NCBI GenBank assembly: GCA_016710465.1
Contig: JADJVS010000001.1
Location: 15,255-79,254 of the forward strand
DNA from: Sulfuritalea sp.
GTDB taxonomy: Bacteria > Pseudomonadota > Gammaproteobacteria > Burkholderiales > Rhodocyclaceae
Direction: 5' to 3'
DNA length: 64,000 bases
A model generated the notes under the pieces. It had not been told where the DNA came from. It saw nothing but the letters and a program-made list of their open reading frames with translations, and did not search any database. A program made the translations under genes and the position numbers. This document shows positions 5,284 to 37,019 of the stretch, in pieces. The first letter of the stretch is position 1. Every line of letters starts with the position of its first letter.

Positions 5284-5640
5284 ATGCTCCCCGCCCTCAC
5301 TCTGCTCCTCACCTACCAACTGGTCGGTGAAGTCATCGCCCAGTTCTTCGCCCTGCCGGTGCCCGGGCCAGTGATCGGCATGGCGCTGCTGTTCGCCACG
5401 CTGGCGCTGCGCGGCGCGGTGTCGGAAGAGTTGCGCGGCACCGCCAACGGACTGCTGCAGCACCTGTCGCTGCTGTTCGTGCCGGCGGGCACCGGGGTGA
5501 TGCTGCATTTCGGCCGGCTGGCGGACGAGTGGCTGGCGCTGCTGGCCTCGCTGCTGGTGAGCACGGCGGTCACCATTGCCGTGAGCGCGCTGCTCATGCG
5601 GATGCTGATGCGACGTCGCGAGGCGGAGGACAAAGCATGA
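5284..5640 (+). CDS. CidA/LrgA family holin-like membrane protein
   Basis: 118 aa, four hydrophobic segments, 'LLLTYQLVGEVIAQFFALPVPGPVIGM'. Stop overlaps the next start (ATGA). Confidence 0.8.
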   Translation: MLPALTLLLTYQLVGEVIAQFFALPVPGPVIGMALLFATLALRGAVSEELRGTANGLLQHLSLLFVPAGTGVMLHFGRLADEWLALLASLLVSTAVTIAVSALLMRMLMRRREAEDKA

Positions 5641-6359
5641 CGCCGCGCCTGGGCGAAATCTGGGTTTATCTCTCGGCGTCGCCGCTGCTGGGCCTGAGCT
5701 TGACCCTGCTGGCCTACCAGGCGGCCTTCTGGCTGCACAAGCGCTGCAACGGCCACCCGGCCGCCAACCCGGTGCTGCTTTCGGTGCTGGCGCTGGTGGC
5801 GATCCTGTGGGCGACGGGCACGTCCTATGCCACGTATTTCGAGGGTGCGCAGTTCGTGCATTTCCTGCTCGGCCCGGCCACGGTGGCCCTCGCCATTCCG
5901 CTCTATGCCCAGTTCGCGCGTCTCAAGCGCCTTGCCCTGCCGCTGTTGGCAACGCTGGTGGCGGGCTCGATCACCGCGGCGCTGTCGGCGGTGGCGGTGG
6001 CGGCGGCCCTGGGCGGCAGCCGGGTGACGCAATTGTCATTGGCGCCGAAGTCGGTGACGACGCCGATCGCCATGGGCATTGCCGAGCGCGTCGGCGGCCT
6101 GCCCTCGCTCACTGCCGTGCTGGTGATCATGACCGGCATCCTCGGCGCCATCGGCGCGCGCTACGTGTATCGCCTGCTGGCGGTGAAGGACGAGGCGGTG
6201 CGCGGCTTTGCGTTGGGCCTGGCCTCGCACGGCATCGGCACGGCGCGCGCCTTCCAGGAAAGCGAACAGGCCGGCGCCTTCGCCGCGCTGGCGATGGGCC
6301 TCAACGGCCTGGCCACGGCGCTGCTGGTGCCTCTGTTGCTGCCGCTGCTGGCCGGCTGA
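5637..6359 (+). CDS. LrgB/CidB family membrane protein
   Basis: Polytopic membrane protein with 'SLAPKSVTTPIAMGIAE' typical of LrgB. Start taken at the internal ATG coupled to lrgA. Confidence 0.8.
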   Translation: MTPRLGEIWVYLSASPLLGLSLTLLAYQAAFWLHKRCNGHPAANPVLLSVLALVAILWATGTSYATYFEGAQFVHFLLGPATVALAIPLYAQFARLKRLALPLLATLVAGSITAALSAVAVAAALGGSRVTQLSLAPKSVTTPIAMGIAERVGGLPSLTAVLVIMTGILGAIGARYVYRLLAVKDEAVRGFALGLASHGIGTARAFQESEQAGAFAALAMGLNGLATALLVPLLLPLLAG

Positions 6360-34362: not shown

Positions 34363-34764
34363 ATGAGCGACACCCTCAAGCCCGGCCTTTCCGCCACCCG
34401 CCACGTCGACATCGACCGCGACAAGACCATCAGCTTCATGGGCGACGACTGCCGCGTGTATTCGACGCCGAACCTGCTCTACGACATCGAAATGGCCTGC
34501 CGCGACCTGCTGCTGCAGAACATCGAGCCCGGCAAGGATTCCGTCGGCACGCGCGTCGAACTAGACCACGTCGGCGCCACGCTGATGGGCATGTGGGTGG
34601 ATGTCACGGTGACGCTGACCGAGGTCAACGGGCCCGCCGTGAGCTTCGAATTCACGGCCCGCGACGCGGTCGAGGAAGTCGCCCGCGGCAAGCACAACCG
34701 CTTCATCGTCGGCATCGAGAAAACCGCCCAGCGCCTGCAGGCCAAGCGCGCCAAGGCCGGCTGA
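34363..34764 (+). CDS. Hotdog-fold acyl-CoA thioesterase (FlK-like)
   Basis: 133 aa. 'VYSTPNLLYDIEMACRDLL', 'VGTRVELDHVGATLMG'. Confidence 0.65.
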   Translation: MSDTLKPGLSATRHVDIDRDKTISFMGDDCRVYSTPNLLYDIEMACRDLLLQNIEPGKDSVGTRVELDHVGATLMGMWVDVTVTLTEVNGPAVSFEFTARDAVEEVARGKHNRFIVGIEKTAQRLQAKRAKAG

Positions 34765-34775
34765 AGCAGGACAAG

Positions 34776-34809
34776 AGTCGGCGCCGGCGACACGGCGCCG
34801 CTATTCTTC
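34776..34809 (+). terminator. Intrinsic terminator built from dispersed repeat copy 2
   Basis: CGGCGCCG - GCGACA - CGGCGCCG followed by CTATTCTTC, 12 nt after the thioesterase stop. 22 nt are identical to 14445-14466. Confidence 0.55.
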
Positions 34810-34869
34810 GGCGGTCCCCGGCAGGTTCAGTGCCTCGACGAAGCCGAAGCGCTTGAAGTCGCGCACCCG
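34801..34869 (-). pseudogene. Remnant of a peptide deformylase 3' end (last 22 codons plus stop)
   Basis: Minus strand translates 'RVRDFKRFGFVEALNLPGTAEE*'. The intact def nearby ends '[22 protein letters not shown]' (15 of 22 identical, same length to the stop). Confidence 0.7.
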
Positions 34870-34881
34870 CTGGGCGGCTGC

Positions 34882-35304
34882 CTAAATCGCTTCCACGCCC
34901 ATCTTCATCCGTTTCGCGTTTGCGGACATCACGCTGTCCAGCGTGGCAACAGATTGCGCGCCTATCTCCCTCGCCACGGCCAGGTGCAGCGCATCGCCTG
35001 CCCGCAGCCGGTGTGTGTGTTGCTTCGCCAGATCGGCGGCGCTTCTAAATGCCGTGCGGCTGACAGGAACGATGCGCAGTCCGCTCATCGTCAGCTTCTC
35101 GAATTCCTTCCGCACGATCTTGGCGTCGCTTTCCACCAGTTCCCCCGCTCTGAGCTTGATTGAAACCGCGCTATCGAACTCCGTCAGCAGCCAATCGCCA
35201 CTGACGGGGATTTCGTTCAAGCCGCCGAACCATGCCTTTACGTCAGCCGTCCTTGGCTCGGGCACCAACAGTGACACGGCGACACTGGTATCAAGGTAGA
35301 TCAT
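34882..35304 (-). CDS. vapC: PIN-domain toxin VapC
   Basis: 'MIYLDTSV', 'LLTEFDSA', 'GDALHLAVA', 'TLDSVM' acidic PIN residues. Start overlaps the antitoxin stop. Confidence 0.85.
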   Translation of the reverse strand: MIYLDTSVAVSLLVPEPRTADVKAWFGGLNEIPVSGDWLLTEFDSAVSIKLRAGELVESDAKIVRKEFEKLTMSGLRIVPVSRTAFRSAADLAKQHTHRLRAGDALHLAVAREIGAQSVATLDSVMSANAKRMKMGVEAI

Positions 35305-35551
35305 CAGTAGCGATCCTCTTGGCGCATCATCTCGACGGTAGTGGTCGTCATCGGCATTTTGGCGTGCAGCTTGCGCAATCGCTCCAAGAAGGCCGCCTTG
35401 TCGAATGTCTGTGTTGGCGTCAACTTGATCTCGCCCAATGCCGTCACTTCCGCATCAACCGTGTCGCCATCGCGCAACCGGCCGCGCGCGTGCACTCTAC
35501 CGGCAATCGAACCGCCAGGCTGTTACCCCACTTCGATAGTTGCAACCTCAT
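35304..35551 (-). pseudogene. vapB: AbrB/SpoVT-type antitoxin VapB, frameshifted
   Basis: The ATG at 35551 encodes 'MRLQLSKWGNSLAVRLPVECTRAAG', then stops after 35 codons. The rest ('LRDGDTVDAEVTALGEIKLTP...') continues in another frame (ORF 35304-35495). The shift lies near 35470-35480. Confidence 0.7.
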
Positions 35552-35662
35552 GACGTCCCCGATGTAGAAACACGTATAAACATAGTAGCACGAACTGAAA
35601 TGCGTGCAAGCACCTCACACGGTCTTGACGGGCAACCGTGAAGATGCCGGGACCGAAGCGCC

Positions 35663-36190
35663 CTATTCGTCCGCCACGCCGGGGATATTCAGGGCATCAG
35701 TGAACCCGAATAGGCGAAAGTCCCTGACTCGCATGGAGTAGAGGATGCCGTCGAGATGGTCGCATTCGTGCTGCACCACGCGCGCGTGGAAGCCTTCGAC
35801 ACGGCGTTCAAAGCGCCGCCCGGTTTCGTCGCAGCCCGCGTAATACAGGCGCTTCCAGCGCGGCACCCAGCCGCGCAGCCCGGGCACCGAGAGGCAACCC
35901 TCCCAGCCCTCTTCTTCCTCGTCGCCGAAGGGCGTCAGCTCGGGATTGATCAGCACGGTTTCCGGCACCGGCGGCGCCTCGGGATAGCGCGGAGTCGCCT
36001 GCATGCCGAAGATCACCACGCGCAGATCGACTCCGATCTGCGGCGCTGCCAGTCCAGCGCCGTCAAGATGCGCCATGGTGTCACGCATGTCGGCGAGCAA
36101 TTCGGCGAGTTCCGTGGTGCCGAACCCGGTCACCGGCTGCGCCACCCGCAGCAGTCGCGGGTCGCCCATGCGCAGGACTTCGCGGATCAT
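35663..36190 (-). CDS. def: Peptide deformylase
   Basis: Motifs 'GLAAPQIG', 'EGCLSVPG', 'QHECDHLDG'. Start taken at the internal ATG (MIREVL). Confidence 0.9.
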
Positions 36191-36281
36191 CGCCGCCTCA
36201 TGCCGCCGCCGGGCCGCCCCAAGGCGGAATACGCCCCCCTTGGGGGGGCAGCGAGCCGGGGTTGCGAGCGTGGGGGGGCAA

Positions 36282-37019
36282 TCATGCCTCGCACAGCCCT
36301 TCGATGATCCGGCGCACGCGCCCCATGGCTTCGTGCAACACGGCCTCCAGTTCGTCAAACCGGATTCCGTGCGCGGAGTCGGCCCGTCCGGCAGCCCAGT
36401 TCGCCACTACACAAAGCGCCGCATAGGGCAGGTCAAGCTCCCGTGCCAGCCCGGCCTCGGGCATGCCGGTCATGCCGACGATGTCGGCGCCATCGCGGTG
36501 CATGCGATCGATCTCGGCGGCGGTTTCCAGGCGCGGCCCCTGTGTCGTCGCATAGATGGCGCCGTCGAGCACCGTCTCGGCGACGCGCCGCGCGACATCC
36601 AGCAGCACCTGGCGCACGCCTTCATCATACGGCTCGGTGAAATCGACGTGCACCACCGGGCCGTCGCCCCCCGACTGGAAGGTCATTTCGCGGCCCCAGG
36701 TGTAGTCGATGATCTGGTGCGGAACGACCAGCACACCCGGCCCGAGGTCGCCACGAATTCCACCGACGGAGGCCACCGATACCACCCGGGAAGCGCCCAC
36801 GCTGTCCAGCGCATGCATGTTGGCCCGATAATTCACCAGATGCGGCGGTATCGTGTGTCCGTGGCCGTGGCGGGCAAGAAACACGACATCCTGGCAACCG
36901 ATGCGGCCGAAGGTCAACGGTCCGGAGGGCTCGCCATAGGGCGTGCGCACGACTTCGCGGTGCGAGACGTCGAGATTGGCGAGTTGCGTCAAGCCGCTGC
37001 CGCCGATGATGCCGAGCAT
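36282..37019 (-). CDS. 5'-methylthioadenosine / S-methyl-5'-thioinosine phosphorylase
   Basis: 'MLGIIGGSG', 'FLARHGHGH', 'VGGIR', 'GMTGMPEA'. Confidence 0.85.

Follow-up and report, generated by a model that had tools for sequence, protein, structure and literature searches.

Islands that integrate at a gene's 3' end carry a replacement end and leave the displaced original at the far junction. What, then, is to be made of a toxin-antitoxin (TA) pair that stands alone between two versions of one gene end, with no island around it? We address this question for a vapB-vapC cassette next to def, the peptide deformylase gene (35663-36190, minus strand; Pfam PF01327 (Pep_deformylase); MBK8758894.1), in a 64-kb stretch of DNA, here called the window, from a wastewater metagenome-assembled genome of Sulfuritalea sp.; relatives were compared as contigs labelled L002-L114. 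We propose, with a probability of roughly 0.78, that the cassette is the grounded remnant of a phage-like integrative element whose P4-like tyrosine integrase targeted the 3' end of def.

Which def end is native

A sequence-only reading of this locus had described an intact def end and a diverged duplicate of its last 22 codons, with only vapB-vapC between the two. Both observations hold, with the correction that vapB is frameshifted in the window. The orphan def 3' end, RVRDFKRFGFVEALNLPGTAEE* (asterisk, stop codon), occupies 34801-34870 on the minus strand. The two ends lie at equal distance from their stop codons and share 15 of 22 residues and, at the nucleotide level, 44 of 70 bases (63%). 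Translated on the minus strand, 34798-34899 reads GVEAI*AAAQRVRDFKRFGFVEALNLPGTAEE*, that is, the end of vapC, four unrelated codons, and the 22-codon copy of the def terminus with its stop, so that the orphan begins 12 nt beyond the vapC stop. This likeness is not due to chance, because the next-best ungapped match to the def-end 22-mer in a six-frame translation of the whole window reaches only 8/22. Between the two copies lie vapC and vapB and no other genes.

The sequence-only reading had left it undecided whether the orphan was the displaced or the incoming terminus, and had proposed that relatives without vapBC be examined for an empty site with def beside the thioesterase gene. Such sites exist. 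An exact-sequence look-up of the thioesterase gave ten long contigs (L008-L017) from near-identical sibling Sulfuritalea strains, in all of which thioesterase and def are 36 nt apart and vapBC is absent. Their def proteins agree with that of the window up to ILYPM and then end in RVRDFKRFGFVDALNLPG(IV|TA)EE*, which is the orphan version. When the window is aligned with one of them, L010, the match runs from the thioesterase start to 34870 with two mismatches, and from the def start to 35738; the native def body (35730-36190, minus strand) is 100% identical to L010 down to that position. In addition, the native Sulfuritalea def variants in the protein cluster all end in KRFGFV[DE]A.NL.G..EE. 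Since the orphan matches the def end of the empty sites, it is the native terminus, displaced, and the insert brought in the end that def uses today.

The native right-hand neighbour of def is a thioesterase gene of the FlK family (34363-34764, plus strand; Pfam PF22636; MBK8758892.1). A GC-rich hairpin between the two genes (34779-34800), found in a terminator scan, is predicted to terminate both the thioesterase gene and native def, which converge on it. It is identical in the empty sites, and its T-rich tail runs into the orphan stop codon, in agreement with the earlier remark that the thioesterase terminator overlaps the def remnant.

These comparisons also bear on whether the arrangement might be a second def gene in decay, or a misassembly. 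Either would account for the bare resemblance of the two ends and for nothing more. The empty sites have a single def ending in the orphan sequence, no relative carries two def genes here, and a full second def, which the sequence-only reading had named as the sign of a decaying paralogue, was seen in none of them at the def position, which excludes paralogue decay. The occupied form, with both def ends, is present on 13 contigs of ~99.7% identity from independent samples (wastewater and other) and assemblers, and is thus not an assembly artefact. We consider the chance that either explanation is correct to be negligible.

Ungapped comparison with the empty sites and the other occupied contigs defines a net insert of 862 nt, including one copy of GCG, at 34868-35729 (minus strand). 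It consists of a def 3' end, a 45-nt spacer, a promoter region, vapB and vapC, and its GC content is 58.9%, against 64.2% for the window. The left junction reads ...CCCATGCG|AGTCAGG (35730|35729) and the right junction ...GCAGCCGCCCAGCG|GGTGCGC (34868|34867), with GCG at both. We place the true junctions at these positions because the T at 35737, which gives def its Ser151, is a base change specific to the window strain; the other occupied contigs have ILYPM, as do the empty sites. From 35729 onward the window diverges from the empty sites into the incoming def 3' end now in use (35663-35729, minus strand), which bears an element-type signature, RLFGF. The left junction contains a likely recombination core, ATCCTCTACYCCATGCG, encoding ILYPMR (35730-35746, minus strand), and a dyad, ACCCS-ATG-CGGGT, is centred on the Met152 codon. 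Host sequence gives way to element sequence within ATGCG, at the dyad centre, and this fits what would be expected of a tyrosine-recombinase crossover site. The att-like direct repeats that the sequence-only reading had thought might be found at the junctions did not turn up: there is no long repeat at the insert ends, only GCG, or an imperfect CCCATGCG / CCCA-GCG.

Two other classes of mobile DNA were considered for the insert and rejected. A transposon, insertion sequence or miniature inverted-repeat transposable element (MITE) was set aside, as there are no terminal inverted repeats at 34868 or 35729 and no transposase. An integron cassette was likewise set aside, given that the cassette end has no imperfect palindrome and that the window holds no relative of the L018 integrase introduced below, with no separate search made for an integron integrase or attI.

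Integrases beside def in related contigs

If the insert derives from an integrative element, related DNA with an integrase should lie at def, and the sequence-only reading had suggested a search for islands at the def 3' end that bear an integrase and the same vapBC. A profile scan for VapC homologues, with one genome per species, followed by a def search of the resulting loci, gave two informative hits. In L018 (Sulfuritalea sp. MAG2), an orphan def fragment is followed by four GCGGGTATC repeats, a 437-aa integrase gene, vapB and vapC. The def fragment, ILYPMRVKDFRLFGFADVLSIHVDQEK* (ILYPMRVKDFRLFGF..*), is of the RLFGF type, and the integrase has the domains Arm-DNA-bind_3, Phage_int_M and Phage_integrase of a P4-like, arm-binding enzyme. 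L018 VapC is 89% identical to that of the window. By blastn, window positions 35617-34873 align with L018 5684-6432 at 85% nucleotide identity, from the integrase stop to 9 nt past the vapC stop, and window positions 35747-35680 align with the L018 def fragment at 81% identity. The def-like homology of L018 starts at ATTCTCTACC, 12 nt further upstream (ATTCTCTACCCGATGCG), and 65 nt to the left of this start there is an arm-like site, GCGGGTAAC. With arm-like sites on either side of the core, this L018 junction may represent an attP. In L107, too, an integrase of the L018 kind is followed directly by vapBC, so that two contigs link the same TA pair to such an integrase.

Islands at the def 3' end itself were found as contigs of close homologues in a search with the L018 integrase. 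They come from two further host lineages (L108-L111 and L112-L114), whose integrases share 92% and 77% identity with the L018 enzyme and are encoded 172 nt past the end of an intact def; these closely related integrases are 77-92% identical to one another. In both lineages the context is typA-MTAP-def, followed by the P4-like integrase, a TA pair and phage genes. In one lineage the TA pair is HigB with a helix-turn-helix (HTH) protein (HigBA), and the other has a RelE-like toxin and an HTH protein instead; beyond the pair, each lineage has more than 10 kb of DNA that includes an O-like replication initiator, a DnaB-like helicase and a virion structural protein. Every def adjacent to an integrase carries the RLFGF end, with the consensus tail [AT]DVL..., and then conserved arm-site repeats; the arm motif GCGGGTATC occurs four times beside the integrase gene in L108, as it does in L018. 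The presence of RLFGF ends and arm repeats at each of these def genes argues for a clade of phage-like elements that targets the def 3' end and brings its own RLFGF-type replacement. The best matches to the integrases among cultured phages are at most 38% identical, and the exact 1806-aa protein from the edge of the L108 contig was not returned in a protein search.

The slot after the def-targeting integrase (L108 11391-11986; L112 12256-12982) varies among these relatives, holding HigB/HTH, a RelE-like toxin with an HTH protein, or VapBC, and thus behaves like a variable cargo slot.

We suggest the following course of events. An element of this clade would insert into the last ~25 codons of def, with crossover at the short core around ILYPMR. 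The RLFGF-type 3' end supplied by the element would keep def intact, and the native end would be displaced to the far junction. The intact element would then be ordered as def, new def end, arm-site repeats, integrase, TA pair, and phage replication and structural genes, and the left junction of the window would still be the original product of the integrase.

The window copy and its possible histories

How far has the window copy departed from such an element? A tblastn search of the 64-kb window with the L018 integrase as query found no integrase, and the window cassette does not contain the arm motif GCGGGTATC. At the place where the relatives carry ~1.5 kb of arm-site repeats and the integrase gene, the window has a spacer of 45 nt (35618-35662, minus strand). 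The spacer encodes LPVKTV*, which weakly matches the integrase C-terminus, ...VVPLKRNVAA*; the blastn alignment does not extend into it, and the spacer is at most a tentative candidate for a remnant of the integrase C-terminus.

The other end of the cassette is truncated as well. L018, L106 and L107 have a complete hairpin, ACCGCCGCC-TGACGGACTCAGGCAAA-GCGGCGGG, after vapC (alignment A4). The window has the left arm alone, GCAGCCGCC, which runs straight into CAGCG|GGTGCGC of the orphan, with the loop and right arm missing. The hairpin is cut off exactly where the orphan begins, and the homology to these three contigs ends at it. This right junction region (34871-34881, minus strand; it reads GCAGCCGCCCA in the def sense, and the blastn alignments stop at 34873) is thus the left arm of the vapBC terminator hairpin. 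Since a canonical right junction would carry more of the core together with the right arm, and the window has neither, the right junction does not appear to be a canonical attR and looks like the product of a secondary deletion.

Taken as a remnant, the window copy would have descended from a full element by deletions on either side of vapBC. The right junction would stem from a later deletion that ended in the core, perhaps at a CGG microhomology or with one T lost from CCCATGCG, and the integrase would have been removed by a separate deletion. The losses would comprise the integrase, the arm sites, and everything past the left arm of the vapBC terminator, including the right arm of the element. 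With integrase, arm sites and right arm gone, the cassette should be unable to move by itself. The suggestion that a def-targeting element had been reduced to its TA module without an integrase is supported by the empty sites, by the integrase-bearing relatives (L018, L107 and L108-L114) and by the truncated hairpin. The reduction need not have occurred in the window strain, as the reduced cassette could have arrived there by ordinary homologous recombination.

Exchange between reduced and integrase-linked cassettes is indicated by a block in which the window type (L004) and the integrase-linked L107 type are 100% identical over ~250 nt (alignment A4, columns 225-473). The block comprises the 3' two-thirds of vapB and the first 60 nt of vapC, and is bordered on both sides by 10-14% divergence. 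This pattern shows that the grounded copy has recombined with active elements in recent times.

Type II TA pairs stabilise islands, and vapBC has most likely been retained since loss of a TA pair would be counter-selected, with deletions in its flanks being tolerated. The toxin gene, vapC (34882-35304, minus strand; PF01850, E = 4e-13; MBK8758893.1), encodes a PIN-domain protein of 140 aa. D5, D37 and D123 are invariant across 31 homologues, and E42 and D104 nearly so; judged by these residues, the window VapC looks intact. The antitoxin gene, vapB (35304-35551, minus strand), is of the MazE/AbrB type, with PF04014 recorded on intact 82-aa copies. Such copies are present in L002-L005, and the vapB stop codon overlaps the vapC start. 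In the window, CC at 35478-35479 stands in place of the CCC found in six other contigs of the cassette, and the resulting frameshift splits the 82-aa frame into reading frames of 35 and 63 aa, leaving vapC unaffected. The NCBI numbers MBK8758892.1-MBK8758894.1 are taken by thioesterase, VapC and def, which leaves none free for a vapB product. Several homopolymer lengths differ nearby between the window and L010, and the frameshift may be either a real inactivation or a homopolymer error of long-read assembly. If it is real, a GTG-started product of 63 aa would still contain the C-terminal half of the antitoxin. Upstream, the predicted vapBC promoter/operator region (35552-35617, minus strand) has TTGCAC and TACTAT separated by 16 nt, and is homologous to the stretch from the integrase stop to vapB in L018 and L107; an automatic scan did not call this promoter, which with 8/12 matches fell below its threshold.

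Several points weigh against a grounded remnant. No full-length element with both junctions was found in the window species, and that the intact relatives leave an orphan def end at their far junction is a prediction from L018 and the window. Two deletions are needed, one on each side of vapBC, and that on the right stops no more than a few bases from the core, a tidy outcome for a random deletion. In contig L105, from another species, def is followed by a short spacer and vapBC and there is no integrase; such an integrase-less unit may be older and travel as such. Contig L099, from a related organism, has a full def at 5589-6116 (Ga0208511_101218) that ends in RLFGFTDVLNVPGIVDE*, of the RLFGF type, with a GGDEF gene downstream and no integrase, vapBC or orphan beside it. 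The RLFGF end may thus be native to the L099 lineage, which would make this lineage the source of the element's def arm, or it may be the leftover of a lost element. A scan with the ATGCGNGTNARRGAYTTYCGNYTNTTYGGNTTY pattern for element-type def ends gave no match in viral contigs and two matches in metagenome contigs, namely L099 and one contig already in our set. Finally, up to position 702 contig L106 is identical to the window type, and from there on to the L107 type; it has the same def and spacer, with cargo after vapC. We do not rely on it as a missing intermediate, given that the shared 250-nt block makes a chimeric contig possible.

L105 and L099 lend themselves to an explanation that requires no integrase, in which donor DNA carrying def-vapBC was anchored by homologous recombination in the def body and its far end was joined at the GCG microhomology. 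A def followed directly by vapBC with no integrase exists not only in L105 but also in L019, the RLFGF-type end of L099 stands without an adjoining element, and the window junctions share three identical bases only. Such one-sided recombination would need a chance joint at the very codon where the incoming sequence first differs, with no host base lost or duplicated. Moreover, the switch point lies at the centre of a dyad-symmetric site, as expected of site-specific recombination, and integrase-bearing elements provide the match for the RLFGF end as well as for the stretch that starts at the integrase stop codon. We regard this route as quite improbable.

The architecture of the window is also repeated elsewhere in the vapBC family. 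A comparison of the two 600-nt flanks of the pair, one upstream of vapB and the other downstream of vapC, at 62 loci across the family revealed flanking direct repeats, always at the same places, in 8/62 loci as compared with 9/427 shifted controls (Fisher p = 4e-4). In L058 (4279-5503), vapBC comes after a LuxR-type regulator gene whose end is intact, and is itself followed by an orphan copy of that end, of 67 codons (212 nt, 92% identical), and in L028 (1639-2529) a 17-codon gene end with its stop (51 nt) is duplicated around vapBC. In L023 and L024, vapBC of this family follows a P4-like integrase, the order in L024 being tRNA-Leu, integrase, vapBC. The simplest reading of this pattern is the repeated decay of islands in which a TA pair sits beside the integrase.

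The same repeats could be read in another way, namely that the unit of gene 3'-end copy, promoter and vapBC is itself mobile, either as a small circle served in trans by the integrase of a resident full-length element or by a Campbell-type single crossover within the short def homology. The locus would then never have contained an integrase. Such a unit may hitch-hike on integrases provided in trans, or loop out and re-enter via its flanking repeats. The minimal architecture at unrelated genes in L058 and L028, the enrichment of flanking repeats in the survey, and the integrase-less def-vapBC unit of a second species in L105 are in favour, as is the tightness of the window junctions, which in def coordinates are no more than 5 nt apart. 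If correct, this explanation would account for the bare architecture at def, at the LuxR-type regulator and at other genes, and for the pile-up of TA modules after def in L019. However, a tyrosine integrase of this kind needs arm-type sites and a recognisable right arm and core, which are missing from the cassette and from its right end, respectively. The position of the right junction, within a terminator hairpin that has been truncated, suggests damage rather than design; no motif is common to the repeats of the different loci; a RecA-driven crossover would need more than 3-8 bp of identity; and no circular form was seen. We therefore think it unlikely that the cassette moves as a unit, and continue to favour a grounded remnant.

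Two further observations concern the surroundings of def. In L019 (4863-8000; Betaproteobacteria bacterium NC_groundwater_918, JACQAO010000020.1), a run of TA modules directly follows def, made up of a second vapBC, a vapBC of the present family, an HI1420-type antidote pair and a HicB protein. Within this array there is no integrase, and no orphan def ends were detected at the nucleotide or protein level; the run may have built up from what successive elements left behind at def. On the other side of def, between the MTAP stop and the def start, the window contains an insertion of 83 nt (36204-36286) that is unique within the window. It has a 7-nt direct repeat, TCATGCC, at both ends and a C6...G7 hairpin inside, and looks like a small MITE- or REP-like element. 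The insertion is present in the window, L010 and L017, and absent from L008 and others, where the gap between MTAP and def is 7 nt.

Def among known integration targets

Islands that enter the end of a gene and supply a replacement end are known, such as SGI1 at the trmE 3' end, GIsul2 at guaA, and the dusA-specific islands (PMC8409611, PMC9376610). The def elements resemble them in that the tyrosine integrase of the relatives adjoins the junction, the target is kept intact by an element-supplied end, the native end is, in the window, left at the far junction, and a TA pair is often found near the integrase. They differ in the target itself; in addition, the window copy measures 862 nt and has no integrase, and its two gene ends are only 63% identical, with a very short block of identity. 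ICESt1 and ICESt3 at fda are a further example of integration at a gene end. Full-text literature searches, including peptide deformylase combined with integration terms, returned no paper describing def as an attachment site. With the P4-like (DUF4102-type) islands at tRNA genes, the def relatives share the set of integrase domains and the arm-site repeats between att core and integrase; unlike those islands, the def clade targets a protein-coding gene. The mechanism would thus be the established one, and def an additional protein-coding target of P4-like integrases.

Variable defence or TA slots beside the integrase have reportedly been described for P2/P4-type elements by Rousset et al. in 2022. 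In the def relatives, the position after the integrase similarly holds differing two-gene modules; these elements are not P4 satellites, and the likeness of the slots is one of gene content. Integron TA cassettes and the window cassette are both small, promoter-bearing TA units that are present or absent between strains. In contrast to integron cassettes, the window cassette has no attC-like palindrome and stands between two copies of the end of a host gene. TA modules are known to be retained in grounded or cryptic prophages and in remnants of islands (PMC6379469), and in Sulfolobus vapBC is found at remnants of tRNA insertions (PMC3718332). As in these cases, the addiction module of the window appears to have outlived the rest of a decayed element. 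Unlike typical remnants, the window copy is extreme, with only a TA pair and two def ends left, and the empty site persists in sibling strains.

Since the mechanism is already established, the general significance of this locus is modest. Nevertheless, stages of island decay can be followed here in public data, from empty sites in sibling strains and intact phage-like relatives at def to a remnant of 862 nt. For annotation, a short orphan gene end beside a lone TA pair can be used as a marker of a former integration site. For the window strain, the comparisons also show that the last ~22 residues of its working def protein, the product of an essential-type gene, are of foreign origin.

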